From Escherichia coli (lineage in GTDB: Bacteria; Pseudomonadota; Gammaproteobacteria; Enterobacterales; Enterobacteriaceae), in assembly GCF_041248615.1 (NCBI RefSeq), contig NZ_CP158425.1: a DNA stretch of 64,000 nt. One strand, 5' to 3'. Shown here piece by piece: positions 34,841 to 62,254 of this stretch (the stretch's first letter is position 1; the number at the start of each line of letters is the position of its first letter). Under the pieces are notes generated by a model, which ran no database searches, was not told the DNA's origin, and saw nothing but the letters and a program-made list of their open reading frames with translations. The position numbers and the translations under genes are program-made.

Positions 34841-35311
34841 TTAATGAATCCCTAAAATGCGGGCGGCGACTGCCAGCTGCTTATCACTTAACTGACGCTG
34901 GTGGGTTAAAGAAGACTTAAGGCTTTCCAGAAAATTATTACTGCTGGATTGCTGGGTGATTGCATCAACCATTTTTTGATGAGATCTGCACCATGCATTG
35001 AACGCAGAGTTGTGGGCGTTTTCAGTCCTCAAACGCTCGTTTTGCAAGGATGCTGACACTTTGCGGGCAGCTTGAGCATTAATGCGGTACAGCGCATTCA
35101 GCGTGTAAGAAGTGCGGGTCGTTTCGAGGCTGTAACCCGTGGCTTTACAAGCCATACAGCGACTTCTATAAAAATGCTTACGCTCTCCCCGACCATTGCA
35201 TTTATCGCAAAGAATACGAAAAGTATATTCCGCAGTACCTTTTACAGAATCAACACAGCGGATTTTTGCGCTGGAGATTTCAATTCCACTGCGATCATAA
35301 TATTTGGTCAT
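34841..35311 (-). CDS. zinc-ribbon protein with two CxxCxGxG motifs
   Basis: CDKCNGRG and CMACKATG; GGTTATTAGC promoter box upstream. Confidence 0.5.
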   Translation of the reverse strand: MTKYYDRSGIEISSAKIRCVDSVKGTAEYTFRILCDKCNGRGERKHFYRSRCMACKATGYSLETTRTSYTLNALYRINAQAARKVSASLQNERLRTENAHNSAFNAWCRSHQKMVDAITQQSSSNNFLESLKSSLTHQRQLSDKQLAVAARILGIH

Positions 35312-35745
35312 AATGTGATTCCTCCGGTTAGTTCTGGAGTAATCATGACAGAATGAATCTACTGGCTAATAACCTGAGAGTAAATATTTTAAAAAAACAT
35401 TGAGAGAGGGTCTGCAAATTTATACACGAAGGATTCAAATATAATTTTGTTTAAAAAATTAAGAGCATTCTGAAGTAAAAGTGCATCAAAAAGCATTCAT
35501 GGATAAATCATGTACTGGTGCCAGCCATTTAAACGCGGGCATTGTTCCGGAGTGATTAAACGGTTTAGCATCATAGATTAAAACCAAAAGGAAGGCGTCC
35601 TTCCCGTCTCGGGAATATTACTTTCCCGTTTGCAATTTAAGAGCCACTTAATGAGAAAGTAATAATTAAGTCATGCTCAACTCTACATATTACATTGAGG
35701 ATGGCGTAACAGGGTACGGCATACTACCGCACCCTTCTGAAGAGC

Positions 35746-38163
35746 TTATGTTTGAGGGAATTCTATAGCAAATGTGGCCGTGCCAGATTGACCACTTACA
35801 GCGGGAGTAACGGGATACGTGCGCTCTTCACCATTACCAAGATCCAGTGACAGCGATTTAGTTTCACCAGGCTGGACCGTAACTCCGGCAACCGTAACGC
35901 CGAACTGGGCATTTTTCTGAACAGTCAGGGTTCCGTTTAACTGTCCGGTAATGATAGAACCGTCCTGACGCCGCAACACACTGGTTCGGATGATGGCCAG
36001 CGGCGTGTTGTCCGTTGCTTTCAGTGCTACGGCTGTGGCCAGCGTCTTGAGATTATCCAGCATAATCAGATTCGCAGGCTGGTAGGTAAAATTAAGCGTT
36101 TTAGTGGTCCGGTTACCTGATTCGTCAATAGCCAGTGCCTCCAGATGATACATCTGTCCCGATTCGTCAGTGTTGGGGAAGATTCTGGGGTATTCCGGAA
36201 TAAAGACATCCTTGGATAACGGCGTGAATGCCAGGGTGACCTTTTCAGAGTTAGGTCCACCAGCGAGCTGAAGCGATGTCAGGGAAGCATCCCCAGAGGC
36301 ATCAGTAACGCTTATGCGAAGGTTCTCAAGCCCTTTAACCAGTTTTCCTTCTGCGTCTGCGCCATTAAAACTGAACGCGATAACCGGAAGCGTTGAGTCA
36401 ATTTTCAGCGGTGCATTAAGCGTTTTGGTTCCGGTGTTTCCAACAAGATCCGTGGCAGAGACGCTAACCACCGTATAATCCCCGTCCGGTAGACCAGCGT
36501 ATGAGAAGGTGGCGTTTTTGGTTTTATAATCGCTTTCACTGACGGTCACAGGCTTCAGCGTGAAAGGTTCCCCCCGGGCATTTTTAAGGGTGGCTTCGAA
36601 AACTTTGGTATCCCAGTAGCTGATGTTCCAGGCGTTGACGCGATCATTATCGGTGGCCGTCATAGTGATTGTCTTGGAGGCCTTGTTTACCTGAGCGACA
36701 TTAACCACCGGTGGGTTGTTATCCCAGATAACCGTAAAATTACCAGCAAGCGCATCGAATATGCTGTCACCATCTTTTCCCGAGTAAAGGTGCAGATACT
36801 CAAATCCTTTGTCACTGGTGTAGTTGAAGTTAACCGTCATCTCGCATGAACTTTGTCCGATAGGTATAGTGCAGAACCAGGCTGCATTTTTTACCGTTCT
36901 GAACTTTTGCACGTATGGTCGGGGTTCAGCGGTTACCTTTATGCGGCTAATGGTGGCGGTTTTAACGCTGATTGAGGCCTGAGTTAACCACTCACTGGTA
37001 TCACTCCGGTACATCTCTTTAGCCACTATCTTCGGGGCTATTTCCATCGCCGGGGCTGGAGTGAAGTTGAGGGAGTTATGATGAATTCGTCTTACTCCTC
37101 CTGCCAGAGTCTGGAATTCATGATAAGTATCCCCCACATTGGGATATATGTATTTGAAAGTATAAATATTATAAGTGCTATCGGACGTCTGGAAATTCGA
37201 GTCCGCCCAGCCATATTTGGAACCGTTAACAGCAGTAAAGTCACTTTTTTTCCTTAATACCCGTACGGAAATAGGGTTCTGGAAGACGGTCATGCCAGAC
37301 TGATAAGTGACCCATGATCCGGTAGTGGCGTCCTGCACCTGGATGATATCGTCAGGCTTAACCCGATCAATTACGCTTCGGCGGCTTAGTTCGATCCTGT
37401 TTCCCGCTTTGTCATAAAGGTAGATCCCCACTTTATATTCAGAGCGGTTTTCCGGTGCCAGGGCATTGCTGCTTGCGTCGGCGACTTGAACGGTTACGCT
37501 ACCTTCCACTGTATTAATTTCCGCTGGCTTTTTACGCTCCACTCCAGCGGCATCGGTTATGAAATATTCAGCATTAGCAAGCCCGGAACCTTTATCACTC
37601 AGTCCATTAAAGACCAGTGCCTGGACGCTGGCGTACTGCATACCGGCTGGTACTGAAGTGAAGATCGCTTCGCTGCCAAAGTTCCACCCGTTTCTCGTAT
37701 AACTTATGGTACCCGTTGCCGGAGGCGTTCGGTCAATTGCAAGCGGGTAATCCTGCCGGGAGACCTCCTTCCCTTGCAAGTCGGTAATCACCTCTCTGAG
37801 GGTGAAGCTATCTTCTCCCATCGCTGGTACGGTCAGAGTCTTGCCGTAATAATCAAAGCCTGTCGAAGATGTGGTACGGTCATCTACGGTAACCAGGCTG
37901 CTTTTCGTGCTCCAGATGAGGCTCCCGTCACTTTTCAGCAGACTGAGCGTAATATAACGGTCCAGACCGGAAATAACGGCAACGTCAAAGCTCGTTACCG
38001 GATTAATCCATACGGATGCAGGCGATACGGTCTTTTTAACGTTCAGGGTATCTTTAAAGCTGAATTCTGCGATTTCAGCGGAAGCTCCTGCGCTGAAACC
38101 TGCAAATGCAATAAGCAGGGCTAGTTTGATTTTCATGGGTTGTCTCCTGATCAGGTTCCCCAT
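35746..38163 (-). CDS. large secreted protein, paralog A of an about 800-aa family
   Basis: Sec signal peptide ending ASA; conserved LISGLDRY and C-terminal LTVQKNAQFG blocks shared with two other ORFs. Confidence 0.6.
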   Translation of the reverse strand: MGNLIRRQPMKIKLALLIAFAGFSAGASAEIAEFSFKDTLNVKKTVSPASVWINPVTSFDVAVISGLDRYITLSLLKSDGSLIWSTKSSLVTVDDRTTSSTGFDYYGKTLTVPAMGEDSFTLREVITDLQGKEVSRQDYPLAIDRTPPATGTISYTRNGWNFGSEAIFTSVPAGMQYASVQALVFNGLSDKGSGLANAEYFITDAAGVERKKPAEINTVEGSVTVQVADASSNALAPENRSEYKVGIYLYDKAGNRIELSRRSVIDRVKPDDIIQVQDATTGSWVTYQSGMTVFQNPISVRVLRKKSDFTAVNGSKYGWADSNFQTSDSTYNIYTFKYIYPNVGDTYHEFQTLAGGVRRIHHNSLNFTPAPAMEIAPKIVAKEMYRSDTSEWLTQASISVKTATISRIKVTAEPRPYVQKFRTVKNAAWFCTIPIGQSSCEMTVNFNYTSDKGFEYLHLYSGKDGDSIFDALAGNFTVIWDNNPPVVNVAQVNKASKTITMTATDNDRVNAWNISYWDTKVFEATLKNARGEPFTLKPVTVSESDYKTKNATFSYAGLPDGDYTVVSVSATDLVGNTGTKTLNAPLKIDSTLPVIAFSFNGADAEGKLVKGLENLRISVTDASGDASLTSLQLAGGPNSEKVTLAFTPLSKDVFIPEYPRIFPNTDESGQMYHLEALAIDESGNRTTKTLNFTYQPANLIMLDNLKTLATAVALKATDNTPLAIIRTSVLRRQDGSIITGQLNGTLTVQKNAQFGVTVAGVTVQPGETKSLSLDLGNGEERTYPVTPAVSGQSGTATFAIEFPQT

Positions 38164-38270
38164 GATACTTTTTCAGTGTTCGAGATCTTTTCGGGAAAAT
38201 AGCTAATTTTAATGTTTTTCTTTTCTGCCCGGCGGGACTTGTTTTGTTTACGTAAATGCAAAAATACAAG

Positions 38271-38285
38271 AAAAGTTACTTTTTG
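38271..38285. promoter_or_regulatory. palindromic motif AAAAGTTACTTTTTG (candidate operator)
   Basis: About 110 bp upstream of the secreted-protein gene start; followed by GATAGG as in the copy at 53061. Confidence 0.5.
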
Positions 38286-38539
38286 ATAGGGTTAAAATTA
38301 GGTTTTCCCAATTTCCAGAAGCAAGCGAAAGCAGAACTAGCTTAATAGCCATTAAAAACGCCATGCCTATTGATAAATAAAGCTCATTACATTTAATGAT
38401 TAGAGCATTTAAAACTGAATTAGCGAAAGAATTTCGGTTAGCTTTTTATTGCATGAGTGAAACAGTATTAATAATCCGGAGCCATCAGAACGTACTCTAA
38501 AGACTCCGGTATACAGATATCTTGCCAGTAAAAATGGCC

Positions 38540-38791
38540 TTACTCCTCATCATCCCCCAGCGCTTTTTTGATGGCGCGGCGGCGGGCTGCATCACCTACA
38601 CGATATCCGACTGAATATACGTCATTCAACCGGCGCAGAATAAGATTTATTTCCTCATCCTGAATGTAGGCAGGTAAACACAGAACTACGTCGCCATCTT
38701 CATCATAGACTCGAACAACTTCCTTCTGCCCATCTCGCTCGCGAATAATCTGGACATGCTGAACCCTGGTGTAATCTGGGATTACGCTCAT
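38540..38791 (-). CDS. hypothetical protein
   Basis: 83-aa ORF. Confidence 0.4.
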   Translation of the reverse strand: MSVIPDYTRVQHVQIIRERDGQKEVVRVYDEDGDVVLCLPAYIQDEEINLILRRLNDVYSVGYRVGDAARRRAIKKALGDDEE

Positions 38792-38998
38792 TTTAAATAT
38801 CTCTCTTTAATTGTTGTTACCAGTTAGCTATAAGCCGGTTTATTCAGGTACTCAGTGTTCTGCACAGCAATCGCCTGTTCGTGGATCATTAACACTGCTG
38901 GGCGGGCTTTAAGGCGCTTGCTGGTGAGAAAACGCTTCACTTCTTTAAGTTCGCTGCCAGCCGACAGCATATTGAAGACATGCTGTTTGAGACTGTTG

Positions 38999-39256
38999 TT
39001 ATTTTTGGCCACTTGTTTCTCCATCATCTTTGTACATGGTTGTGTCGGGCTGGCCTGCCAGATCACACACGTTATCCATATGCTTTTGGACCCAGTCTGT
39101 TAGACCCAGGCCTTCGGCCTTTGCCTGATTGACGTAACGCAGTTTCCGATCAGGGGTAACCCGCATCTGTAGTTGTGCCGTCGCTGGAACCGCCTCTTTC
39201 AGGGCGTTAAGGCCCCTCTGATCACGGGCCTGATTTGATGGTTTACCGTTTGGCAT
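38999..39256 (-). CDS. putative ribbon-helix-helix DNA-binding protein
   Basis: LQMRVTPDRKLRYVNQAKAEGLGLTDWV; paralog of 13145..13501. Confidence 0.4.
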   Translation of the reverse strand: MPNGKPSNQARDQRGLNALKEAVPATAQLQMRVTPDRKLRYVNQAKAEGLGLTDWVQKHMDNVCDLAGQPDTTMYKDDGETSGQK

Positions 39257-39680
39257 CTGAGGTATCGCTCTCCCGGCGAGCGGTGGACGACTCTAATTCT
39301 TTTGCGATTGCTTTATCTACGGCATCCAGCTGCATAGCAAACTTGATTTCAAGCGAACAGCGTAATGCCTTCAGGGCGCGTTCTTTGGTGCTGTATTGTG
39401 GTATGCCGTTCTGGCTACCATTCATGCCTCGCATGCGGCGGGAGGTTGCATCGACAACCTCTCCCTCTTCCCGTGTGCCGTGAACCGTAGTTCCGCTCCA
39501 TGTCGGATAAACAGTGCCAGTGGCGGTGTTGAAGCTCCAGCCGTTTTGGTATTCCCCCGAGACCTCTGGTACGGGCATATCGCGTTCAACGCTATAGTCA
39601 GACCAGCGTAAAGCGCGGTTTATTCTGGCCTGTGCCACCAGCTCATCATAGGCGGCTTGTTCTTTTTTATTCATCGCCAT
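39243..39680 (-). CDS. hypothetical protein
   Basis: 145-aa ORF. Confidence 0.4.
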   Translation of the reverse strand: MAMNKKEQAAYDELVAQARINRALRWSDYSVERDMPVPEVSGEYQNGWSFNTATGTVYPTWSGTTVHGTREEGEVVDATSRRMRGMNGSQNGIPQYSTKERALKALRCSLEIKFAMQLDAVDKAIAKELESSTARRESDTSDAKR

Positions 39681-39783
39681 TTAGGGCAATCTCCTTAAAG
39701 GGGAATTAGGTGTTATATCGGTACGTAAGTGCTTTTCAGGCCTAATCTCTGACAAGGCCTGATGTGCCAGACTGCCGTTGCAT

Positions 39784-40308
39784 TCACCGTTTTATGGCGG
39801 TTGACTGAGCCTCATTAAGAGCCGCAATTAGTTCAGGCGAAGTCGGCTCCAGATTTTTGGAAGCGTTCAGCAGCTCCTTAAGTGAAGAGATTTCCTTTGG
39901 CTCTACCTGGTTTGCTTCAGGAGCCGTTTTTTGAACTTCATCCAGAGTACGCTGTGCACCGTTATCCAGCACCAGCACACCCCCAGCACGAATTTCTGAA
40001 ATGGTGCGCACCGTATACATCATTTTATCCCAGACACGGCTACCAACCTCGATCCCGGAATCAGCTACTTTTTTTTCATTATGCTTTTGAAAAATTTCTT
40101 CTAACCATGTGGTGAAGCGCTTTCCAAAAGTATTGGCGGCTAAAGAAGTGCAGGAATAAACCTGTTCGACCTGTTTTGTTCCATTTTTATCAGTGAATGT
40201 AATGAGACCGATTCGTCCACTGTTAACAGTGTAAAAGCGAGGTTGAAAGCCAGCTTTGAGAAGGTTTTCAATAGCTGAAAAAAAATCTTTTTTGAGCATC
40301 GGTTTCAA
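39784..40308 (-). CDS. hypothetical protein
   Basis: 174-aa ORF. Confidence 0.45.
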   Translation of the reverse strand: MKPMLKKDFFSAIENLLKAGFQPRFYTVNSGRIGLITFTDKNGTKQVEQVYSCTSLAANTFGKRFTTWLEEIFQKHNEKKVADSGIEVGSRVWDKMMYTVRTISEIRAGGVLVLDNGAQRTLDEVQKTAPEANQVEPKEISSLKELLNASKNLEPTSPELIAALNEAQSTAIKR

Positions 40309-40628
40309 GATGGTTTTCCTTTTATGCCCGGTGCCGCCGGGACGGTGGCATTAAATATACGCCATGTAAGTAAATTAATTTTTACCCATTTGATTGTCAA
40401 TACAAACAAAAAATAAACCATGTTTATTATTTTACCAGCGATGCTATTTTAAAGTCCGTCTAAAATAAAAAACCAAAAAGTTAAATTTGAAGCCATCCTT
40501 CCTAAATTCATTTCTTGCGCATATTAGCCCCTGCTTTAAGTATATAATTTTTGAAAAAGTTGTCTGGAGGTTATTAGCTCGTGCATCTGGATTGTTAATA
40601 TAAAGCCAACACAGAAAAGGAAAACAAA

Positions 40629-41393
40629 ATGTATAAATTAGTATCTCCTCGTGAACTGACTGAGATTATTACCGGTTTACTGCTTAAACCTGAACTCCTT
40701 GGTGAGCTGGACTCACCAGAAAAGCATCGGATGTTTATGGCAGATTTAGGCCGGGTGGTGGCAGAACATTGTGGAGGTCTGGTAAACAGCGTCGTCTTGC
40801 CAGGAGCTGAAGTTACAGTGCCGGATGGGTTACCGCTTAACGGCCAGCCAGTACGTTATCTCGGAATCAAAGAGAGCATCCCTCACCTCCTTGTAGAGCC
40901 TGATGCTTCCTTACCTTCGCTCGCTAAAAACGTCTGGATGTATGCAGATCCTGAAGGCTGGAAAGAACATTTTGGAGCTGAGGAAGACTGCCTTACTCAT
41001 GAAATGATGCAGCTGTTCCGTAAAGGTATCCAGGCTCTTCAGAAGGAGCATGATACCCCTGAAATTAGCCTCACACTTCAGGACTGGCGCCTGGAGGAGG
41101 AAACACTGAGAGAAGAGGACAGTCAGGCCTATCAGGTCAGCGTTACCGGCCAACATAACATCCACTGTGAAGTTGTTAACAAGGAAGGTAACCCCTGTTT
41201 TGGTGTCATGTTCGAAATCGATCAGGGTGTGCCTGCCTTACACATCAACACCGGCGGGGATATGTTGCTCCACATTCATTGCGCCCATAACGGACTCGTT
41301 CTGACCCCTGATGCAAGCGGTCAGCGATTTGAGAAGGCTCCCGTTGACCGCTTCGCTTATAACAGCCCATCCCTGCTGTTGTCTGCCGACTAA
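40629..41393 (+). CDS. hypothetical protein
   Basis: 254-aa ORF, first gene of a plus-strand operon. Confidence 0.45.
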   Translation: MYKLVSPRELTEIITGLLLKPELLGELDSPEKHRMFMADLGRVVAEHCGGLVNSVVLPGAEVTVPDGLPLNGQPVRYLGIKESIPHLLVEPDASLPSLAKNVWMYADPEGWKEHFGAEEDCLTHEMMQLFRKGIQALQKEHDTPEISLTLQDWRLEEETLREEDSQAYQVSVTGQHNIHCEVVNKEGNPCFGVMFEIDQGVPALHINTGGDMLLHIHCAHNGLVLTPDASGQRFEKAPVDRFAYNSPSLLLSAD

Positions 41394-41410
41394 CCAAGGC
41401 CAAATCTGAA

Positions 41411-43224: not shown

Positions 43225-43688
43225 TGCAGTTCTCGCCAGGGCAGTTTGTAATTCACAACAAGAAGCGCCTTGCGGAACGAAGGTAGACGTACTGACTGAG
43301 GTTCACTCCCCTCTCGACTGGTGGCGTAATACCGCCAGGTTTTGATTCATATATGCCGTCCGTTAACGCATTTATATCTGTCATACCTAATTTATCCTGA
43401 TTCTTTTTTACACAAAGTAAAAGCATCACTTAATGCGATATGTGGATGCCGATAGTTTCAGGCTAATGTTATAAGTTTTGCAATCGTTGCCAGTTTGGAT
43501 ACCACAGCAATGTCAGATGTAATTCCAAAAAGAAAGATTTACGTCCTGAACGCACAATAAGGTTTGTCGAAAGGCAAATTATAGATTTGTAATTTCGAGC
43601 ACCATATGGAGAAGTTTTTTATACTTTTACGAACATAGTGACCTTTAGGAAAAGCTTAAAATAACACCAAACCTAAAGGGGAATAAGA

Positions 43689-46109
43689 ATGAAACATCTC
43701 GCTTTTATTACTGCTGTAGCCGGACTCGGTATGTCTGTTCAGGCCCCAGCTCAGATATATGAATCGGCCTTTAAGGACACGAACGGTATTGAGATCCACG
43801 CCCCGTCTTCTCGTCTTATGCTTAATCCGGCATCACCGGTAACTTTGACACTTATTTCAGGTCTTGATCGTTTCGTTAATGTCAAAGTCACGAAAGACAC
43901 TGGAACTGTCATTCTTAATACTACGACTACACGGACGGGTGTATCAGACCGACTAACAGCTGCTGACGGTAGTGAGTTCTACGGCAAAAAAGTAACTTTG
44001 CCTGCTTTGGGTGAAGGCAAATTTGTCGTTCAGATAAACGTGTTAGATCTCAATCAGAAGCCTGTAGCGACCTATAACTATAACTGGCTAATTGATGTCA
44101 CCCCTCCAGCGGCAAATGCTCTTACCGCTAATACTGGTTCTGGCTCTACCGCTGGTGACGTGTGGAAGCTTGGATTAGAGGCAACGGGGCAGTATGACTT
44201 CACCTCTTCGGGCGTAAGTGATGCAAATGGTATTGATAAGGGCCTAATATATATTTACAGGCAGGACGGTAGCCTCTACAGCACTACACAGATGCAGTAT
44301 GACGTATCCGGCCAAAAGATGTACCACACTTACTCTAAGAATTCAGTTAAGGGAACCGGAATACCAGACAGCAACCTGGATGAAGACTTTACTGCAAAAG
44401 TTGTTATCTTCGATAACGCAGGTAATAGCCGAACGCTGCCAACTCAAAAATTTCGCTACGACAACACGCTGGGTGAGATGACACTGTGGGCCGTTCATGA
44501 TCCAAATACGTCTTCCAGCGTCGTACCCGGGGTTTCTAATTATCCGGCTTACAAAGCCGGTATGGTCGTTAACGAAAACCCTATTCGATTAGTCTACCGG
44601 ATCCCAAAATCTAACTACCGTGCTTATTCAGAAGGTGGGCTTCAGTTCATCAATCAATATTCCGCCCCCAAAGAGATAGCTGTAGACAGCACTTATGCTT
44701 ATGTTGAAATGACTCTTCCCTATGGCTCAATTAATGGGGATATGGCTCGTATGGCGAACTTTGGCCAGTGGGGAGGGTATTATCCGTCATACAGCCTCGT
44801 TCTAAACCCATCTGCAAACCAAACGCCTGCATTTGCGGGTACCTGGGTAGATTTCCTCGATGATAAGGGGAACTGGGTTAAGTGGAAGGATTTTGAGAGT
44901 GTGGCTTCATCACGACTGCCAATTAAAATTTCCCGACTTCGTTTTAACGTTGAAGCCCGGCCCTTTGCACAGGAGATCGGCGGTAAGGCGACCTGCACCA
45001 TTCCGGCAGGAAAAACCTCGTGTGAAGCGCCTGAGACGTTTGATATGGCCTTGGGTACCCAGGGCTACAATAGAATCCTTTACTTCGTTCGCAGCATCAG
45101 CAATCCCATTTTGCGGTCTGAGCAATGGATTATGACACGCTGGAACAATAAACAACTGCCGGTAATAAACTCGATATCATATGACGAGACTAACAAGCAG
45201 CTGGATGTACTGGCGTCACTTGAAGGCGATGGTAACTGGTTCGACTCGGTCTCATTGAGGGAATTTTATCTTTCCGATAAGAACACCGGTACCCGGATGT
45301 CACCAACAGGCGTAATCAAATCTCGTATCTCAGGTAACTACACGATTGCTTATGATTTATCCCGTCAGTCTGAAGGAAAATACAACGTTGAGGTCAACAT
45401 CAGGGACTTCTTCCAGAACCAGACCAATAAAACTTTCGGAGAAATTGCTCTGGATAACACTCCTCCGACAGTGGCCATAACATTCGACGGAAAGCCGGTA
45501 AAAGACGATACGGTAGTGTACGGCCTGGAGAACCTCAGGATCGCTCTGGCAGATAATCTGACAACCCCGAGGATAACCCGTCTTCAGCTCGTAGGTGGCC
45601 CCACAGCTGATAACGTTGAGCTTACGTGGTCACCGGCAGGCAAAGATACATACATGCCTGAGTATCCGAGGCTGTTCCCAAATTTCGAACCATCTGAAAA
45701 TTATTCAATTAGCGTAACAGTTGCCGATAGTCAGTCGAATACCAAAACCTATACTCAGAAGTTCAGTTATCTACCGAATAACCTTGTGCAGTTACATAAT
45801 CTACGCACATTGTCGGTCAGTTCACCTCTCAAAACGACAGATGGCGTACCACTTGCGTACCTGTCCACTAACGTTCTGCGTAAGACAAATGGAGAAATTG
45901 CTAAAGGGGTCCAGAACGCAACGCTGACTGTGCGGAAGGATGCAGCCTTCGGTATTAAATTTAATGGGGCACAGGCGGCTCCAGGCGAGTCAGTTGAGGT
46001 GCAAATAGATATGGGCCAGGGGGATAATCTTCTGTTACCCGTTTATCCTTCCGAAAATGGGAAAGTTGGCACCTCAGAATTCATGATTCAGATCGACGAG
46101 TTGAAGTAA
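43689..46109 (+). CDS. large secreted protein, paralog B of the about 800-aa family
   Basis: Signal peptide ending AQA; same conserved blocks as paralogs A and C. Confidence 0.6.
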   Translation: MKHLAFITAVAGLGMSVQAPAQIYESAFKDTNGIEIHAPSSRLMLNPASPVTLTLISGLDRFVNVKVTKDTGTVILNTTTTRTGVSDRLTAADGSEFYGKKVTLPALGEGKFVVQINVLDLNQKPVATYNYNWLIDVTPPAANALTANTGSGSTAGDVWKLGLEATGQYDFTSSGVSDANGIDKGLIYIYRQDGSLYSTTQMQYDVSGQKMYHTYSKNSVKGTGIPDSNLDEDFTAKVVIFDNAGNSRTLPTQKFRYDNTLGEMTLWAVHDPNTSSSVVPGVSNYPAYKAGMVVNENPIRLVYRIPKSNYRAYSEGGLQFINQYSAPKEIAVDSTYAYVEMTLPYGSINGDMARMANFGQWGGYYPSYSLVLNPSANQTPAFAGTWVDFLDDKGNWVKWKDFESVASSRLPIKISRLRFNVEARPFAQEIGGKATCTIPAGKTSCEAPETFDMALGTQGYNRILYFVRSISNPILRSEQWIMTRWNNKQLPVINSISYDETNKQLDVLASLEGDGNWFDSVSLREFYLSDKNTGTRMSPTGVIKSRISGNYTIAYDLSRQSEGKYNVEVNIRDFFQNQTNKTFGEIALDNTPPTVAITFDGKPVKDDTVVYGLENLRIALADNLTTPRITRLQLVGGPTADNVELTWSPAGKDTYMPEYPRLFPNFEPSENYSISVTVADSQSNTKTYTQKFSYLPNNLVQLHNLRTLSVSSPLKTTDGVPLAYLSTNVLRKTNGEIAKGVQNATLTVRKDAAFGIKFNGAQAAPGESVEVQIDMGQGDNLLLPVYPSENGKVGTSEFMIQIDELK

Positions 46110-50383: not shown

Positions 50384-52840
50384 TTATTTTAATTCTTCAA
50401 TGTTAATCATGAACTCAGATCTGCCAGTAAGGCCGGATACAGCAGGGAAAATAGGAAAGCTACGGCTGTCCCCGAGCCCCAAATCCAGTTGAAGCTCTTT
50501 GCTTTCACCTGGCATCGCAGAAACGCCATTTACAGTCACGCCGAATGCAGCGTCCTTACGGACAGTAAGCACTGCGTCCTGAAGCCCTGTAGCGATTGAA
50601 CCATCCTTTTTACGCAGCTGGCTGGCATACAGAACAGCCAGAGCAGTATTGTCAGATGTTTTGAGAGAAGCATTGACAGCTAAGGTTTTCAGATTCTCTA
50701 GCCTGACGAGATTGTTTGGAAGGTAGTTAAATTCGACTGAGCTTTCTTTAACGTTGTTCATCTCATCTTTGGCCTGAACTGTGAGAGTGTATGTTTCGCC
50801 TTCATTAAGAGACGGAAAGATCTTGGGATAATTAGGTGCATACAGGTTGTTTCCCAGATTCACCCAAGACAATTCCACCGCATCAGAAACAGGGCCACCG
50901 CGAAGAGTCATACGGCTTAAGGATGGTTTAGTTAGAGCATCGGTGAGCTGTATACGGACGTTCTCCAGCCCATATACTGTTACGTTTTTGCTGATCGGTT
51001 TTCCTTCGTAGCTAATACTTACAGATGGTGCTGTATTATCAACGACAACTGTTTGATAAGGGAGGTTACCGGTATTGTTGAATGTATCTTGGGCATTAAT
51101 CACCACGTTATAACTGCCTTCTGGTACCTCTTTCATGTTGAACTCATACGTGTAGTTCCCAGACGCCATATTTCTACCTGTTTGTTTGCCGGTTACGCTT
51201 ATTTCTGCGTTGTTACGGTTTTTATCTGACAACCAAACTCGATTTACATAAACATGGTCGAAATATGAACCATCTCCAGGTTGATTCACGTAAACCTGGA
51301 GAATGTTGGTGGTTTCATTGTAATCAAATCCAGTGACGGAGGGACCCAGTGTATGCCAGGCTATATTCTCCCATATAGGGGCAAAGAAGGTTGCTTCGGT
51401 GGTTGACCTTACTTCATAGCCACTATGAAGATAACCGGTAGTGCCATTTATAATATCCTGGGGCAAAGAGACGGTACAGGTTGTTGAGCCAGCTGGAATA
51501 CTGCATGTTGCTCCGCCAGTGATTTTTTGATCATATGGCCTGGCCTGTACATTGAATCGGATATTAGTAAGTTTTATAGGCATATCAGATGCCTTGAACA
51601 GGTTCCAGTTTACGCTGTTGAACCATGTTCCATCAGCCTTTTGTCGTTCTATGGGTGAACTTCCCCAAGCCGGACTCTTTACAGAGGCAGGATCCCAGTT
51701 GAGCCAGCTGGCATACTGACCAAGATCTCCTCCAGACCATTGATATGTATTCACAGGTCTATAGTAGTTTCCATCTAAGGCACCCTGTGGCAGCTTAACT
51801 TCCACGTAGACATAGGTGGCATCTTCGGAAAGGACCTGTACTCCGCCATAGTTATTGGTAATGCTCATGCCACCATTTCGATATGGCTTCCAGTTAGTTC
51901 TTGGGATACGTATAACCAACTTGTAGGGGTTTTCCAGCACTGTAAGGCCTCGTTTAAACGGGACGTATCCCGAAGAAATGCCGGGTACAACACTGGTGCT
52001 TACACGTGAGTCATGAACTGCAAATGGCGTAAATTCTCCCATTTGATCGTCATATAAAAACCGCTGGGGAGGAATGTTAAGCGTATTTCCTGCCAGGTCC
52101 GTAACGATGAAATTGAAGGTGAATTCTTCATCAAGATCACTTGAGGGCATGCCAGCCTGGGTGTTCATATCTTTAATCCACGGATAGAACGCACGTTTAT
52201 TGGCTGTGTCATAACTCAGGTTATTGTCGGAGACCACAGAACCATTACTTCGTTTAATGACAAGACGGATCTTGTCAATTCCACTAGCATCCTCAATACC
52301 GTCTGCAAATATAGAAAACTGGCCACTACCGCCTCGGCCCAACTCCCAAAGTGGCCCAGAAAGTACCATGTCGTAACCTGCGTTTTGACTCGGATAAATA
52401 CTCTTATAGCGTGGAGGAGTTGTATCAACGATGAAATGATAAGTAGATGTGCTCACTACAGTCTGGCGAATATCCAGAGTTTCATTGACTACAGTAAAGG
52501 TCCCTTCTCCGAGCGCCGGTAGAACCATATCCTTTCCATAGTATTCTGTTCCATCGGCAGCAACGATACGATCTGCAACGCTCGTTTTGGTCGAGACGGA
52601 GGAATACATAACCTTTTTATCGCTGTCTCGTGTGACCGTCACTCGCTCGTACCGATCAAGACCCGATATCAAGTTCAGAGTCAAAACACCAGCGGGATTA
52701 AGATATGTTTGTGTTGCAGGTTTGATATTCCGAACAGCCTTATTGGTATCTGTAAATGAGTAGCTAAATACCTGAGCATGTGCCGAAGATACAGTAGCAA
52801 GGGCAGTTGCAACCATGCAGCCAATTAGAGTTTTACGCAT
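50384..52840 (-). CDS. large secreted protein, paralog C of the about 800-aa family
   Basis: Signal peptide ending AHA; C-terminal LTVRKDAAFG block. Confidence 0.6.
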   Translation of the reverse strand: MRKTLIGCMVATALATVSSAHAQVFSYSFTDTNKAVRNIKPATQTYLNPAGVLTLNLISGLDRYERVTVTRDSDKKVMYSSVSTKTSVADRIVAADGTEYYGKDMVLPALGEGTFTVVNETLDIRQTVVSTSTYHFIVDTTPPRYKSIYPSQNAGYDMVLSGPLWELGRGGSGQFSIFADGIEDASGIDKIRLVIKRSNGSVVSDNNLSYDTANKRAFYPWIKDMNTQAGMPSSDLDEEFTFNFIVTDLAGNTLNIPPQRFLYDDQMGEFTPFAVHDSRVSTSVVPGISSGYVPFKRGLTVLENPYKLVIRIPRTNWKPYRNGGMSITNNYGGVQVLSEDATYVYVEVKLPQGALDGNYYRPVNTYQWSGGDLGQYASWLNWDPASVKSPAWGSSPIERQKADGTWFNSVNWNLFKASDMPIKLTNIRFNVQARPYDQKITGGATCSIPAGSTTCTVSLPQDIINGTTGYLHSGYEVRSTTEATFFAPIWENIAWHTLGPSVTGFDYNETTNILQVYVNQPGDGSYFDHVYVNRVWLSDKNRNNAEISVTGKQTGRNMASGNYTYEFNMKEVPEGSYNVVINAQDTFNNTGNLPYQTVVVDNTAPSVSISYEGKPISKNVTVYGLENVRIQLTDALTKPSLSRMTLRGGPVSDAVELSWVNLGNNLYAPNYPKIFPSLNEGETYTLTVQAKDEMNNVKESSVEFNYLPNNLVRLENLKTLAVNASLKTSDNTALAVLYASQLRKKDGSIATGLQDAVLTVRKDAAFGVTVNGVSAMPGESKELQLDLGLGDSRSFPIFPAVSGLTGRSEFMINIEELK

Positions 52841-53060
52841 ATGATGCTCCGGGAATAGGTTATAGCCTTATTCTACGGATTCAGCCTACAAGGTCCGGTC
52901 GGATAAAGTGATAATTTGCCTGTTAAAAGAGACATCAAGTGAGAAAGCAACCAACGTACAGAATGCAAAATGGCGGCAGTGCATCTGGATGACGCAAAAG
53001 TAACTTTTTGTATCCACTTTTTTGGATTTTAGCCTTCAAAATGAGTATTCAACCAATCAT

Positions 53061-54841: not shown

Positions 54842-55909
54842 TCATAGGACTTCCTCTTGTTGAATACGTTCGGCGTACAGGATGCGAACCGAAACGGTCG
54901 TGTTTTCAAACTCGTTCTCAAAAACGTCCATCCATTCCGTCCGGAATTCTTCCCCCAAAAGGTTATCGAGCCCCTGAAGAGATAATGGAAGAACGGCTGC
55001 TAGAGATCCCCCGGCTGCGAGATGAGATGCAGCTGCCTGGAGATGCCGCCTGGCCCGGTTATCGGCAAAAGGTGGGTTCATCACGACATAATCAAACTTC
55101 TTCTGTTGATTAGACTTAGACCATGTGAGGAAGTCAGCTTCTGTCGTATCGTATCCCTTAGCCCGGGAGATAAGGCAATTCAAAGTATCAAGCTCGATGC
55201 CAGTAACGATCACACCGGCAGGGAATGATTTAAGCAAATCCGCATGGCCAATATTAGGCTCCAGGAGGGTATCCCCTTCCCCTGCACCAAGCAGGGAAGA
55301 TACATATTCGCTGATTCGGCAAGATGAAGGGTAAAACTGATGCGATACAATATCAGGCATCTCCCCTATCTGGCCGATGTAACGAATAACCTCACACGGA
55401 TCATAGGAAAATGTCACATCGTATTTTGTTACTGTTGCCCCTAAGAACCGAAGGGTGTCAGCGGCAACACTCGAAGATTTGCGTTCGGCGAGAGACCCTA
55501 AAGATGTCCAGCAACTCCATTTATTGTCCCCGTCATTTTTAAACATCAGTTCAGAAAGCTGCATCCGGGTATCAAAGTCGATGCACTGCTTAAGTACAGG
55601 GAATGCCTCCAAAGATTTCTTGCTATGAGCCATACGGTCGGCAGGTAATGCCAGCGGTACGATAGCTGATAAAATATTGTTAAGCCGCTCGGCGATATCA
55701 GGGTGGACGTCAATATGCATTGATCCATTTTTGTAAACCCTGAAACGAATACTGTTGCCATCGATGCAGATCCATTTTCTGAACCCCTCATGTTCGACCA
55801 ACGCCTCAACCAATGATTTGGTGTTATGGATCGCCTTCACCTGTTCGCCACGGAAGAATGCGCATATAACGCGGAGCTCGCTCAGCGGTGAAATGCCAGA
55901 CTCTTTAAA
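54842..55909 (-). pseudogene. C-terminal methyltransferase domain of a gene split by IS629 copy 2
   Basis: EPNIGHADLL, TGIELD and VVMNPPF motifs; no ATG start (track start is GTG); frame open upstream to the IS boundary. Confidence 0.55.
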
Positions 55910-55967
55910 ATCCTGAACCGCCCCGGGAATCCTGGAGACTAAACTTCCTGAGAAAGAGGTAAACAGG

Positions 55968-56294
55968 ATGACTAAAAATACTCGTTTTTCCCCCGAAGTC
56001 CGTCAACGGGCAGTCCGTATGGTTCTGGAAAGTCAGGATGAATATGACTCACAGTGGGCGGCAATTTGTTCCATTGCCCCAAAGATTGGCTGTACGCCGG
56101 AGACTCTGCGTGTCTGGGTTCGCCAGCATGAGCGGGATACCGGGGGCGGTGATGGTGGGCTCACCAGCGCTGAACGTCAGCGTCTGAAAGAGCTGGAACG
56201 TGAAAATCGTGAACTGCGCCGCAGTAACGATATCCTTCGCCAGGCTTCCGCTTATTTTGCGAAGGCGGAGTTCGACCGCCTCTGGAAAAAATGA
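55968..56294 (+). CDS. IS3-family transposase OrfA
   Basis: 108 aa, nearly identical to 18179..18505. Confidence 0.9.
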
Positions 56295-57181
56295 TGCCAC
56301 TGCTGGATAAGCTGCGTGAGCAGTACGGGGTCGGACCGGTATGCAGCGAACTGCATATTGCCCCGTCAACGTATTACCATTGTCAGCAACAGCGACATCA
56401 TCCGGATAAACGCAGTGCCCGTGCGCAGCACGATGACTGGCTGAAGAGAGAGATACAGCGCGTATACGATGAAAATCATCAGGTGTACGGTGTGCGTAAA
56501 GTCTGGCGTCAGTTGTTACGGGAAGGAATCAGGGTGGCCAGATGTACAGTGGCGCGCCTCATGGCGGTTATGGGACTTGCCGGTGTTCTCCGGGGTAAAA
56601 AGGTCCGTACGACCATCAGCCGGAAAGCCGTTGCCGCAGGCGACCGCGTAAACCGTCAGTTCGTGGCAGAACGACCTGACCAGCTGTGGGTGGCTGATTT
56701 TACTTACGTCAGCACATGGCGGGGCTTCGTCTATGTGGCGTTCATCATTGATGTGTTTGCCGGATACATCGTGGGGTGGCGGGTCTCATCGTCCATGGAA
56801 ACGACATTCGTGCTGGATGCACTGGAGCAGGCGTTATGGGCCCGTCGACCGTCCGGCACGGTCCATCACAGTGATAAAGGTTCTCAGTATGTATCGCTGG
56901 CCTACACACAGCGGCTTAAGGAAGCCGGATTACTGGCATCAACAGGAAGTACAGGCGACTCGTATGACAACGCGATGGCGGAGAGCATCAATGGTCTTTA
57001 CAAAGCGGAGGTAATACACCGTAAGAGCTGGAAAAACCGTGCAGAAGTGGAACTGGCCACACTCACGTGGGTGGACTGGTATAACAATCGACGATTGCTG
57101 GAAAGGCTGGGCCATACTCCTCCGGCAGAAGCAGAAAAAGCTTATTATGCTTCCATCGGAAACGATGATCTGGCAGCCTGA
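56291..57181 (+). CDS. IS3-family transposase OrfB
   Basis: 296 aa, nearly identical to 18502..19392. Confidence 0.9.
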
Positions 57182-57223
57182 GTTCACAGATAAAACACTC
57201 TCCAGGAAACCCGGGGCGGTTCA

Positions 57224-57847
57224 ATCCACCCTTAATTTCTGCCAGGGGTATTTAGACGGCTCGCAAACTCCGGTAGTGATCATGCGGGTGGAGAACCCAA
57301 AAGCTTTGTTTGTCTTGTGACTGCGGCTCAGAGACTGGAAGACGTCGTAAACCCTTTCTTTAATAAATTGATTGCGGTCATTAAGCAAAGCAACGACTGT
57401 GCCCACTACAGCGTCAGCTGTGAAATCAGGGATCACCTGAGGCGGCATAATATAACGGTCGGCCGTAAACTGCTTATCCCATTCGTTACGTTTGGCATCC
57501 GACATGATAGGCAAAACATCAGTGAGTGCCATAACGCGTTTCCAGTATTCTGATCTCAGAGCGTTTTCTGCGAACAAGGCATCCGCTTCTGAGATGCTGT
57601 GGTTGTAGCCTGAGAGATAAGAATAAAGTTTCTGGTGATTGTGGGTTTTGAACTGGACAGCCATGAGTTTCAACAAGCAGAGTTCATCATTATAGGACTC
57701 AACAAGATCCGCGATAATGCCGAGCTCTTTGCGCATATCTGGAAGAAATGTTTCAGGAGAGCTAACCACCAGGCTATGAGAGGTTGTTAAAGCCAGTACG
57801 CTGTGACCTGCATTATCGGGTTTAGCTTCAGAATCAAGAGATGACAT
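57224..57847 (-). pseudogene. N-terminal part of the gene split by IS629 copy 2
   Basis: ORF 57221..57847 takes its stop codon from the IS terminus. Confidence 0.5.
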
Positions 57848-57978
57848 TTTACCGGTCCTTTAGAAAAAACTTTTACCAGGATAGCAACGTCGCTCAGTAA
57901 CCTAATAGGTTCAGTGACACGAAAAAGTTTTTTATGTCTCTGAATAAAACTTAAAGATGTCAACTCATAGAAAGAAGC

Positions 57979-58005
57979 AAAAAAAAAGCCCCGCATAAAC
58001 GGGGC
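57979..58005 (-). terminator. rho-independent terminator
   Basis: GCCCCG-CATAAA-CGGGGC stem with a 9-nt T-run on the minus strand, downstream of the ParB-like gene. Confidence 0.6.
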
Positions 58006-58094
58006 AAGAACGATACATGGAGGTTTAAAAAAGGCGGGCAAAAAGCCTGAATCCTTAATGACTCTGACAAAACCAGCACTTTGCCAAAAGTAAA

Positions 58095-59258
58095 TTATTC
58101 TGCGTCCGGCTGTGGGTCAGTATCCTGATCGGTCTCTTCCCCTGCCTTCTTAGCATTTTTTTTACGTGGGTATTTTGGCTTCTCACCATTAAGTTTTGCC
58201 TGACGATTCTCCGCACGGCGAAGCTGCTTGTTCTCTGATTCTGTGATCTCTTTTGAAAGATTTCTCAACATCTCCAGAGTACTGCGGTTCAACGTAATGT
58301 TGATTTCTTCGTCAGCACTTGAATCTGTCAGCTCCGGCAATTCAATATCCCCCAGTTTCTGTAATAAGCTGGTGGTGATGAGTTTGACGCCTTCTACGGC
58401 TTTTGTGGCAATAACCGGCGGAATCCGTGCTGGCTTGAAGTCTGAAGGTCTGACTCGTACCTGACCATGTTGGGTTTTTTTCACCGTGATGCCATTCGCA
58501 TCGGCCTGCTCAAGTTCTGCGATCATCTTCTTGATACGTGAAATTGCTTCTGTTTCGCCGAGCTCATCGATCAGTGAAAGCACGTTAACATACGAAATAG
58601 CGTCAGCATGAATCCATTTCTTGATAACAACAGAACAGGTTGTCAGGCGGATAAGAGAACTGATGGTCGTCGGGCTTTTATTTTCACGTTGAGCAATTCG
58701 TTCGAGTGACCAGCCAGCAAGAGAATGTAGGCGACGATAGGACTCGCCAAGCGCAACAGGAGAAAGCGCAAGACCACGGTTACCATCAATGGTCGCGAGC
58801 TCACAGCCAATTTCATCTTCTTTAATCTCAACGCAAAGGATTGTGATGTCATGATCTTCATCACATGCCATCATTGCGGCTTTTAAACGGCAGTGCCCCT
58901 GGCGAACAAAAGGTACCCCATCAATGACACGTACTCGGATAGGGTCTACATAGTCACCTCGAATGTAGGCATTCTTGATGTTGTAGATGTGTTCTTCAAC
59001 CTCAGGGAGCTTATAGTAATCGTCACCCATTCCCATTTCGCGGGAGTTGAAGCCTGGCGTGACCTGAATTACTGAAGGGTGGATAGCCCATGCTTTCTGG
59101 TCACTTACTTCAGTACAAAGTTCAGGGTTTGCATCACGGAACTGTTTAAGCCCAGTGACGTAACGGCCTGTGCCAGTAACTACTGAAAAGGCAACATGGG
59201 CCGTTTTAAAGACCTTGTCATTAGCTTGCTGTGTAGGTTCTGTCAGTAAAACACTCAT
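58095..59258 (-). CDS. ParB N-terminal domain protein, paralog 2
   Basis: GFNSR and IDGVPFVRQGHCR motifs; upstream of the IS-split methyltransferase gene. Confidence 0.6.
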   Translation of the reverse strand: MSVLLTEPTQQANDKVFKTAHVAFSVVTGTGRYVTGLKQFRDANPELCTEVSDQKAWAIHPSVIQVTPGFNSREMGMGDDYYKLPEVEEHIYNIKNAYIRGDYVDPIRVRVIDGVPFVRQGHCRLKAAMMACDEDHDITILCVEIKEDEIGCELATIDGNRGLALSPVALGESYRRLHSLAGWSLERIAQRENKSPTTISSLIRLTTCSVVIKKWIHADAISYVNVLSLIDELGETEAISRIKKMIAELEQADANGITVKKTQHGQVRVRPSDFKPARIPPVIATKAVEGVKLITTSLLQKLGDIELPELTDSSADEEINITLNRSTLEMLRNLSKEITESENKQLRRAENRQAKLNGEKPKYPRKKNAKKAGEETDQDTDPQPDAE

Positions 59259-59606
59259 AGGGGCTCCGTTACATTTTTCTGCTTACTTTCTGCGTAGCGG
59301 GGATACTACCGAAAAAAAAATTCATAATTTTTCGCAAAAAAGGTACTTTTTGAGCCTATTCTGATTTTTTACAAAAAAAGGTGGCTCCCCATTACTTGTG
59401 ATGGCATAAAAATCGCTTCATAAACAAATACATAAATCCAAAACATAAAGTTCAGGTATAAGTGAGGAAAAATCTTATAAATCCGAAATGCTGAAAGTCA
59501 AAACTGTGCGTCTTAAACAACTTTTTTTTGCTCCCTAAGTTATTAGTTAAAGCCCGTGGTTAGGTACGATACCAGCACCTAAATTTCTCTCTCAGGTATA
59601 GACACT

Positions 59607-60440
59607 TTGACTCGACATCTCAGACACATGCCGATAATCAAATGGGCTGGTGGAAAAACGAAACTGATGCCTTTCATCAGCCATCACTACCCACACGATC
59701 ATAGTTGCCGGTGGGTAGAACCCTTTATAGGCGGTGGTGCCGTTTTTCTGAACATGTTTGCACAAAATGCATTGCTTGCAGATAGCAATCCAGACTTGAT
59801 CAACCTATACAGGACTATTCAAAGACAGAAAACTAACTTTATAAATCAGGTCCAAAACTTGGCGGATAAAACCTTTGTCGAAAAGGACTACTATGAGATG
59901 AGGGACCGTTTCAACAAAACCTGTATTTCTGGTCAATCGCTTCAAAGAGCGGCTTTGTTTTACTCCCTGAATCGCCTGGGCTATAACGGTATGTGCCGCT
60001 ATAACTCAGAAAGAATCTATTCAGTGCCGTGGGGGAAACATACAGAACTGAAGCTTGACCTCAATAAAATAGACTACCTTTCATTTCGTCTTTCAGGTAT
60101 TGAACTGATCACCGCTGGTTTTGAGGAGACTCTGGCCGCAACCGGTGAAGGAGATCAGATTTACTGTGATCCGCCATATGACAAAACAAGCAAAACTAGT
60201 TTTGTCAGTTACGATGGTAAACCGTTCAGCCAAAGCGACCACGTGCTGTTAGCAAATATGCTCGTTGACGCTCACAGAAAAGGCGCTGCTGTTGCGATAT
60301 CAAATAGCCTGACATCATTCACTTTGGGCCTCTATGAAGAGCGTGGATTCGTCATACACAGACTCAGCGCTTACCGATCCGTAGGAAGTAAGCCGAATAC
60401 ACGGAAAACGGAAACAGAAATACTGGCCGTGCTGAAATAG
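59607..60440 (+). CDS. Dam-like (D12 class) N6-adenine DNA methyltransferase
   Basis: IKWAGGK and DPPY motifs. Confidence 0.8.
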   Translation: MTRHLRHMPIIKWAGGKTKLMPFISHHYPHDHSCRWVEPFIGGGAVFLNMFAQNALLADSNPDLINLYRTIQRQKTNFINQVQNLADKTFVEKDYYEMRDRFNKTCISGQSLQRAALFYSLNRLGYNGMCRYNSERIYSVPWGKHTELKLDLNKIDYLSFRLSGIELITAGFEETLAATGEGDQIYCDPPYDKTSKTSFVSYDGKPFSQSDHVLLANMLVDAHRKGAAVAISNSLTSFTLGLYEERGFVIHRLSAYRSVGSKPNTRKTETEILAVLK

Positions 60441-60448
60441 AGTAAATT

Positions 60449-61116
60449 CTAATCAACTAGGCTAATCCATTCCTCAAAAGTTAATACCTCAGGGTAAGTT
60501 CGTTGAACATAAGGTATAAACTGAAGCTCTTCTATTCTCCGGTCGCCCCTCTTTCCTTCGCAAATAAATGAAATGAGTCCTTGCTGAGAAAGGCCAGTAA
60601 GGACGCTCATAAGTCTTATATTTAGACTTTTAAGCTGTAAGTCGTTATTAATGTCCTCCACTTTATGAGAGCTCTGGCCTGAACGTTTAAGATACTCGTA
60701 AACCATGAAATTCGAATTTCGTCGTTTTAACAATTTTTCGGTTATGCATTCCTGAATGAAGTCGCCAAGAGCATCTAAAAGCGGACTGAGAACTACCGGG
60801 AAAGTTAATGTGTAACTTTGAGAAGTTTTAGACAAAGTGAATGAGTTTAGAAAGCTAAAGTTTAGTCTCTTTTTTGAATATGGAACATAAGCGACAAGAG
60901 TAGTCGACATAACAGTAAGTAAAGCTTCAAGATGGTTCACTGTTATTAAAGTGGTTTTATCTGTATTTCTAAGATTATGGAAATCAATAAACGCTACTCT
61001 TGAACGGCTAAGCCAATCTTGTACTTTAATGTCGATAGAAAATTGCGAGATATGATTTGAACATTCATTTTGGGTGATAGGGCATGCAGACGAAAGATGG
61101 TTATGGATTATCATGC
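60449..61116 (-). CDS. hypothetical protein convergent with the Dam-like gene
   Basis: AT-rich ORF; start set at the internal Met because the longer track ORF runs through the upstream palindromic motif at 61201. Confidence 0.35.
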
Positions 61117-61537
61117 ATAGCACAAAAAAAGGAAAACGGCAGGCTGTGGGGCATTGAAAACCGGTTAAAGAAAGCTTAGACGTTTCATATGCGCTTACCG
61201 GAAAAGTAACTTTTCTTAACGTTGGCTTTGACGATGTTCTTGCATTTTTACAAATGAAACCGAGACCCAGATCATTGTGCATTTTAAAGTCCATCTCCAT
61301 CATCACCTTTTAGCCTTAACTGTATGGTATTGGTATACAAAAAATTAAAATTATAATTAATAAGATTATCATTTTTTTACAATAGAAAAGGTTCTGATAG
61401 AGGGGAATTTAAATGTAAAAGATTTATACTCGCAGATCTTTATGAGGGATAAAACCCATTGCGTAAGCAACAATATTACGTGAGTGAGTCCTAACGACAG
61501 TTAAAGTCTTGGCTCTATATTTAAGCAGCAAAAACAT

Positions 61538-62254
61538 TTAACTGTCTTGGAGTTTATTTAACTTAAAAACTGTTATTGCAGCATAATTTTTCGAATCAAA
61601 TTCATAGAATTTTCTGACTTTTCCAGTCAAATGATAACGTTCACCCAATAAAATGTGATCCTGTTTATCGGCCGTTAAAGCGATCCCGTCATTTCTAACT
61701 TTACCAGTAAATGTAAAAAAATAACTCCCTTTACTTTTTGCGTACGCGGCCCTGACTTCAGTAAATGTTAGTTCAATGCTTATGACCTGGCCGATATTGT
61801 AGCTATGTTTTAAAATTTCTTGTTCATTTTCCGGAGTTTCAGACAACATCACATCAAAAGTTGTAAAGAAACAATCCAGCTGGCGTTCTGTCAAGAAACG
61901 GTTATTGTCTAATTGCGCCAATATACTATTAGAAAACTTAGTGTTAGCCTTTTTTGCTTTCTCAATAAGGACGTGGTTTCTGGATTTCCATGCTTCGAGT
62001 GTTGGGTTAACACGCAGTTCCGGAATGTTATCGAGAAAGGTAATTGGCTCTAGTGCCACTAATTTTTCAATAATGGGTCCAACTGTTTGTACCCCATGAC
62101 ACTTTTCACATAAATCAGCCCCTTTGTGGCCTGTGCCCGCACATTCGTTACATTCTCTTTCGATAGGTGCATAATAATTTCCATCTCCGTTAAGTGATAC
62201 ATTCACTGAGGCTGGTACCATATGACCATCAAGAGTAAAGAAAAGAGATTTCAT
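61538..62254 (-). CDS. zinc-finger protein with two CxxCxGxG motifs
   Basis: CNECAGTG and CEKCHGVQ in a 238-aa AT-rich ORF. Confidence 0.45.
   Translation of the reverse strand: MKSLFFTLDGHMVPASVNVSLNGDGNYYAPIERECNECAGTGHKGADLCEKCHGVQTVGPIIEKLVALEPITFLDNIPELRVNPTLEAWKSRNHVLIEKAKKANTKFSNSILAQLDNNRFLTERQLDCFFTTFDVMLSETPENEQEILKHSYNIGQVISIELTFTEVRAAYAKSKGSYFFTFTGKVRNDGIALTADKQDHILLGERYHLTGKVRKFYEFDSKNYAAITVFKLNKLQDS

Follow-up and report, generated by a model that had tools for sequence, protein, structure and literature searches.

Two small genes in the backbone of a conjugative plasmid of Escherichia coli encode members of a single family of phage and plasmid proteins, one of which has kept, and the other lacks, a C-terminal OB domain. 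The window examined here, by which we mean the whole stretch of 64,000 nucleotides of contig NZ_CP158425.1, is part of an IncHI2 (R478-like) plasmid backbone. Both open reading frames (ORFs) lie on its minus strand, namely ORF A (34841..35311), encoding 156 amino acids (aa) and listed in RefSeq as the 'hypothetical protein' WP_049589856, and ORF B (61538..62254), encoding 238 aa and listed as the 'zinc finger-like domain-containing protein' WP_000838218. We are confident that they are distant paralogues of one family, ORF B being a divergent full-length member with three modules and ORF A a conserved, short form without the OB domain. The explanation that we consider the best, and moderately probable, is that ORF B is an accessory nucleic-acid-binding protein for plasmid DNA handling, transcribed together with a ParB-like gene, and ORF A is its OB-less adaptor or regulator paralogue. 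This explanation draws on homology, architecture, fold prediction and conserved synteny, from which we infer zinc binding, nucleic-acid binding and the pathway concerned.

One family in phages and plasmids

A reading of the sequence alone had described ORF A and ORF B as unrelated-looking, a view that does not survive comparison of their profiles. Both match the same region, positions 45–163, of the phage family phrog_4046, whose function is unknown, with E-values of 1e-12 for ORF A and 1e-3 for ORF B, and their family alignments match each other in hhalign (E 2.1e-5). Pairwise BLAST of the two proteins aligns the zinc region as well as a C-terminal L(S/T)xxQL motif. When the profile of the ORF A family was searched exhaustively, 79 representatives at 50% identity were collected, the closer of which are ORF A-like and 150–170 aa long, and the distant ones mostly 250–290 aa long; the entire ORF A matches the N-terminal 155 residues of these longer relatives. 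Comparison was also made with an alignment of 50 distant family proteins (A4), from which both plasmid families were left out. The ORF A family matches A4 with a probability of 99.9% (E 3.8e-32) over residues 1–154, and both the match and the reading frame stop at column 166. The ORF B family matches it with a probability of 98.6% (E 7.4e-16) over residues 4–229, including the C-terminal domain, and extends as far as column 258 of 278; the way in which A4 was gathered has no bearing on this comparison for ORF B. The profile search, which had been proposed as a check on the motifs, thus places both ORFs in one phage and plasmid family. When a hidden Markov model (HMM) of A4 was run against all 728 six-frame ORFs of the window, only ORF A (E 5.8e-33) and ORF B (E 4.2e-12) were recovered, the next best having an E-value of 0.46, and no further copy was found with this model in the 1–162 kb of the plasmid.

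Both proteins match the family profile over the zinc hairpin and the F..SL...L(S/T)xxQ helical module, while the homologous C-terminal OB domain is found in ORF B (domain i-E 5.2e-8) and not in ORF A. Phage proteins of the phrog_4046 type, such as gp042 of Burkholderia phage BcepSauron, accordingly resemble ORF A over the hairpin and helical module and ORF B over its whole length, OB domain included. They differ in that ORF A is without the C-terminal domain, ORF B is very divergent, and the genes of both sit on a conjugative plasmid and not in a phage. Library scans found no Pfam, NCBIfam or PADLOC family covering either ORF, a PADLOC scan of the two ORFs and their neighbours gave no matches, and a tblastn search of phage genomes with ORF B found nothing. 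All the matching PHROGs (phrog_4046, 30451, 4095, 27218, 2319, 3628 and 4265) are of unknown function. A Q-antiterminator-like role, raised by a match to phrog_127 (E 1.9e-3), was dropped, as the match covers little past the zinc knuckle.

Zinc hairpin, helical module and OB domain

The zinc hairpin of ORF A (35135..35209, minus strand; residues 35–59) reads CDKCNGRG...CMACKATG, in which C35DKCNGRG is a strict CxxCxGxG motif and C52MACKATG follows CxxCxxxG; it matches Pfam PF00684 with E 5e-4, under the cut-off. That of ORF B (62087..62152, minus strand; residues 35–56) reads CNECAGTG...CEKCHGVQ, in which C35NECAGTG is strict and C49EKCHGVQ has CxxCxG only. The sequence-only reading had credited each protein with two CxxCxGxG motifs; the paired CxxC motifs are real and non-random, but only the first motif of each pair is strict. 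The pairs are spaced by 14 or 17 residues, and when each protein was shuffled 200,000 times with its composition preserved, the strict motif together with a CxxC...CxxC pair arose at a frequency of only 5e-6 to 1e-5 per protein. Since members of the wider family have the full CxxCGGxG in both places, the second motifs of ORF A and ORF B are degenerate derivatives. The four cysteines and the motif glycines vary little or not at all within each family, among homologues down to 50% identity, and in the 50-sequence superfamily alignment, where C..C.G.G and C..C.G are invariant. The four conserved cysteines likely form a single zinc site. The family profile matches the zinc-finger domain of DnaJA3 (2ctt, E 1.3e-3), and sequence searches of the PDB gave only marginal matches, all to DnaJ zinc fingers.

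The hairpin is followed by a helical module, which in ORF A spans residues 100–154 (34850..35014, minus strand) and carries the signature W..(x)..FLxSLKxxLxxxxxLSDKQLAVA, and in ORF B spans residues 84–137 (61844..62005, minus strand; W89, F107..S110I..L115....L121T..Q125L). ORF B continues into a predicted five-stranded OB fold (61547..61807, minus strand; residues 150–236), which contains 13 aromatic residues. In an AlphaFold2 model of ORF B built on a 56-sequence alignment, the mean predicted local distance difference test score (pLDDT) is 82.7. The N-terminus is modelled as a three-stranded zinc domain (residues 11–70, pLDDT 90–97, with 94–97 over the hairpin), residues 84–137 form helices, and residues 157–234 form a five-stranded barrel with pLDDT of ~80–93. 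Structure prediction, the other check that had been proposed, thus gives the motif region of ORF B, the protein that was modelled, a confident fold as a putative zinc domain. In ORF B, a basic OB domain (isoelectric point, pI, 9.4) is joined to an acidic N-terminus, whereas ORF A is basic over its entire length (pI 9.8). A search of BFVD found many phage proteins sharing the layout of ORF B, nearly all uncharacterised and one annotated as a single-stranded DNA (ssDNA)-binding protein. ORF B likely binds single-stranded nucleic acid via its predicted OB domain.

Zinc-containing OB-fold proteins that bind ssDNA include T4 gp32 and domain DBD-C of RPA70. ORF B has an OB fold in its model, as do RPA and SSB proteins, and scans of Pfam and NCBIfam gave it no match to a curated SSB, RPA or OB family; one of its 56 relatives matches tRNA_anti_2 (E 1e-3). 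Unlike RPA-, SSB- and PriB-type proteins, ORF B would hold its zinc site in a separate N-terminal domain and not within the OB fold, and it has no acidic C-terminal tail; ORF A is without the OB domain altogether.

In some phages, the C-terminal part of these proteins is exchanged. Relatives in a Pbunavirus (PB1-like; locus L021, 3857–4789) and an Erythrobacter phage (L022, 3875–4822) keep the zinc hairpin and the helical module and end in a DUF6011 motif (CxxCGR..GIGPxC), which replaces the OB domain; the zinc and helical part thus acts like a movable unit that can be joined to different C-termini. DUF6011 is the only domain that recurred in a search for domain fusions. Two other candidate fusions, P0051 and P0098, were low-complexity false positives, and P0079, a protein with a TIR domain and a true DnaJ-type finger, was not informative. 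A standalone DUF6011 gene lies near a full-length family member in locus L025. The related metagenomic plasmid L013 carries two tandem OB-less paralogues of ORF A, at 4250–4756 and 5001–5480 (family HMM E 1.5e-23 and 5e-27), showing that the short form has itself been duplicated.

Plasmid and phage settings

Conjugative IncHI2/IncHI2A plasmids from Escherichia, Salmonella and Enterobacter, among them pM160133_p1 (NZ_CP022165), match the 1.4 kb around ORF A (window positions 34400–35800) at 100% identity; this stretch matched ~1,100 plasmid records. The annotation of NZ_CP022165 also includes ORF B and its neighbours. Coordinates of ORF B projected from the ORF A match in NZ_CP022165.1 are off by 22 nucleotides (nt), which points to a small indel between the two ORFs (window 34.4–61.5 kb). 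MobI/MobH genes lie ~6–11 kb before the window.

ORF B does lie in a ParB-like operon, as had been proposed, being the third gene of an array that begins with a ParB-like protein of 351 aa (62469..63524, minus strand), which has no adjoining ParA gene, and continues with a 66-aa ORF (62251..62451, minus strand) whose stop codon overlaps the start of ORF B (ATGA). The 66-aa ORF is kept upstream of ORF B homologues, and IncHI1-like plasmids as well as a plasmid of Photorhabdus have conserved the whole array at 46–62% identity. On IncHI plasmids of both types, the array is oriented divergently from a Rep_3 initiator gene and Tra2 genes. A 285-aa ORF downstream of ORF B (60449..61306, minus strand) has the same position in the IncHI1-like and Photorhabdus plasmids and matches no family. 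The window contains three paralogous ParB-like proteins in all, at 62469–63524, ~58098–59282 and ~9165–10415, each on the minus strand, with 25–30% mutual identity. None of their genes adjoins a ParA gene, and true ParA/ParB and ParM modules are located elsewhere on the plasmid.

ORF A stands beside a HigB-like toxin gene, again as had been noticed; this gene (34495..34791, minus strand; 98 aa, Pfam E 5e-18) is 49 nt downstream of ORF A. Eight nt after its stop codon begins a conserved 393-aa ORF (33305..34486, minus strand), which RefSeq annotates as a shorter 'flavin reductase' of 315 aa. The ORF is conserved over its full length in other plasmids, at 59%, 48% and 29% identity and including the N-terminal 78 residues, and the scan gave no Pfam family in support of its name, so that both the RefSeq start and the name are probably wrong. 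Occupying the position of HigA, it may be an atypical large antitoxin. No helix-turn-helix (HTH)-type HigA gene was found on either side of the HigB-like gene. The downstream partner of this gene varies with the plasmid lineage, being the 393-aa ORF here and a 73-aa ORF in L013.

Several further genes of the window surround ORF A and ORF B. Orphan DNA methyltransferases are clustered at ~29.5–31 kb, 41–42 kb and 59607–60440 (the last on the plus strand). One of them is a Dam-like enzyme of the D12 class (Pfam E 1e-48), and the others are named 'site-specific DNA-methyltransferase' and 'methyltransferase'. At ~56.2–57.9 kb, a DUF4942 gene is interrupted or flanked by an IS3 element. The orphan methyltransferases together with DUF4942 suggest an anti-restriction or establishment island. 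Interspersed with the genes of the ORF A and ORF B region are several paralogous immunoglobulin (Ig)-like proteins of ~800 aa, located at 35746–38163 (minus strand), ~43677–46106 (plus strand), ~50387–52867 (minus strand) and possibly 23927–26338 (minus strand). They are of the DUF4165/Big_3 type, akin to the RSP-type conjugation proteins of IncHI plasmids.

Proposed role and competing explanations

The family is widespread in tailed phages and IncHI-type plasmids, and its ancestral protein would have consisted of three modules. These are an N-terminal beta-strand with a zinc hairpin, whose two CxxC(x)G(x)G knuckles with four cysteines would hold one zinc ion in a manner resembling half of the DnaJ central domain or anti-TRAP; a long charged helix with a small helical bundle bearing the F..SL......L(S/T)xxQ signature; and a C-terminal OB fold like that of RPA and SSB. 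ORF B has kept all of these. Its basic OB domain most likely binds single-stranded nucleic acid, judging from the model, and its zinc and helical modules may serve in self-association or in contact with a partner protein. It appears to be co-translated with the 66-aa and ParB-like proteins and adjoins the replication-initiator gene, and hence would likely act in plasmid DNA handling, that is, in replication, establishment or maintenance. ORF A is a short form, stably inherited, that has the first two modules only; it most likely makes the same protein contacts without an OB domain, as an adaptor, regulator or competitor. The pathway, be it plasmid replication, establishment or maintenance, or possibly anti-defence, is a weaker inference, for which we draw on the ParB-like operon, the adjacent initiator gene and the gene neighbourhoods in phages.

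Several observations weigh against a role of this kind in nucleic-acid binding and DNA handling. The OB fold was recognised in a predicted structure, whose Foldseek matches in the PDB are weak (best E 2.8e-3), and OB folds may bind proteins or sugars. The replacement of the OB domain by DUF6011 in phages suggests that the conserved core function may reside in the zinc and helical modules. In phages, the family gene is found in early or DNA-metabolism regions, without a fixed partner. Its annotated neighbours include UvsX/RecA-like recombinases, DNA methyltransferases, a DnaB-like helicase, a ParB-like protein, integrases and repressors, and among the 148 neighbouring genes of 33 non-redundant phage loci, collected with a 17-sequence subset of the family, none recurs in more than four loci; context is therefore a weak guide to function. 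Literature searches on the family, IncHI2/R478, both WP accessions, DUF6011, and leading-region or anti-defence functions returned nothing relevant.

Among the competing explanations, that of chance motifs in unrelated or non-coding ORFs would gain from the two further occurrences of the strict motif in probably non-coding six-frame segments of the window, but it is effectively refuted already by the shuffle probability of ~1e-5, by retention of the motifs in more than 79 family representatives, and by the strong GGAGG ribosome-binding site that precedes each ORF, along with homologues at 50–66% identity whose reading frames are intact. The sequence-only reading had also called the motifs DnaJ-type and suggested small zinc-binding adaptors that target host chaperones or nucleic acids. 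The label holds at the level of the motif, the knuckle pair being a predicted beta-hairpin zinc site of the CxxCxGxG type found in the DnaJ/Hsp40 central domain, but not at that of the domain, since PF00684 scores 20.6 and 20.1 bits for the two proteins against a gathering cut-off of 32.7 bits. This sub-threshold likeness, together with the Rep_3 iteron-type initiator gene adjoining the operon of ORF B, could favour DnaJ-like co-chaperone mimics or adaptors that engage host DnaK/DnaJ, as initiators of this type often need these chaperones. Against this stand the absence of a J domain or HPD motif from both ORFs in Pfam and NCBIfam scans; the presence of two CxxC motifs and one predicted zinc ion, rather than the four CxxCxGxG repeats and two zinc centres of DnaJ; the lack of the G/F region and DnaJ C-terminal domains; and scores for every DnaJ model far under its cut-off, such as 19.4 and 14.4 bits for TIGR02349 against 377 bits. 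The same knuckle also occurs in proteins that are not chaperones, among them a TIR-domain protein and anti-TRAP. Chaperone targeting is unsupported, and we regard it as very improbable; only a part of the suggested interpretation is supported. The two proteins are homologues and not independent DnaJ-like adaptors. Anti-TRAP (RtpA) of Bacillus subtilis builds its single zinc site from two knuckles, of which one is degenerate, at a spacing of ~14 residues, and continues with a helix, an arrangement like that predicted for ORF A and ORF B with their single zinc site. It is, however, a single domain of 53 residues, as compared with 156 and 238 aa with extra domains; no trp-regulon context is present here, and the anti-TRAP model (NF058604/PF15777) gives 17.3 and 19.8 bits against a 65-bit cut-off. 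By analogy, anti-TRAP would be a better mechanistic model than DnaJ for the zinc module, as a single-zinc knuckle pair that serves as a scaffold for protein interaction.

The neighbourhood of ORF A raises the idea that it is an antitoxin, or a regulatory third component, for the adjacent HigB-like toxin. Its location upstream of the toxin gene is the usual antitoxin-first position, the locus has no HTH-type HigA gene, and the order of ORF A, HigB-like gene and 393-aa ORF recurs in three more lineages of plasmids, in which the identity of the 393-aa ORF falls to as little as 29%. However, two genes part the ORF A homologue from the toxin gene in one lineage and no HigB-like gene follows it in another, so that the adjacency expected of a type II toxin–antitoxin pair is broken twice. 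All the compared plasmids share an IncHI-type backbone rich in Ig-like proteins, and hence the linkage is accounted for equally well by inherited synteny and by function. Moreover, the HigA position is taken by the 393-aa ORF, the closest relatives of ORF A are full-length phage proteins without toxin context, and a Pfam scan found no antitoxin DNA-binding domain, whether HTH, ribbon-helix-helix or other, in ORF A. An antitoxin role is thus possible but disfavoured, and we consider it unlikely. An anti-defence or host-takeover function, in which these proteins act as decoys or inhibitors when a phage infects or a plasmid enters the cell, and might for instance sequester ssDNA or block a nuclease or immune sensor of the host, is in our view rather unlikely. 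Phage homologues are found in small early gene arrays near methyltransferase, PAPS reductase, DUF3846, DUF3768 and DUF3560-methyltransferase genes; orphan methyltransferases, DUF4942 and ParB-like genes surround ORF A and ORF B in the window; and the variable C-terminal module (OB, DUF6011 or none) is a pattern common in arms-race genes. The absence of PADLOC matches speaks against it, with a library that consists of defence, not anti-defence, models, and it overlaps the DNA-handling explanation, as ssDNA binding could be its mechanism.

Beyond the DNA-handling explanation that we prefer, a more speculative proposal, to which we give only a slight chance, is that the zinc-hairpin and helical module is a portable docking module, with which phages and plasmids couple different C-terminal binding domains (OB, DUF6011 or none) to one factor of the host or the element at DNA entry. 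ORF B would then tether ssDNA to this factor together with the ParB-like protein, and the OB-less ORF A would regulate the factor or titrate it, with a possible link to the module of the HigB-like protein and the 393-aa ORF. If this proposal holds, the proteins would form a new class, with a function in establishment or anti-defence.

IncHI2 plasmids are major carriers of mcr and extended-spectrum beta-lactamase genes, much of their backbone is unannotated, and the locus described here is present in ~1,100 sequenced plasmids. The practical consequence is modest for now. Nevertheless, the impression of independent DnaJ-like inventions is corrected, and two 'hypothetical' backbone genes are placed in one phage and plasmid family, which leads to a testable role in DNA handling. 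With 79 representatives, several PHROGs and no Pfam entry, the family could reasonably be put forward as a new domain family.

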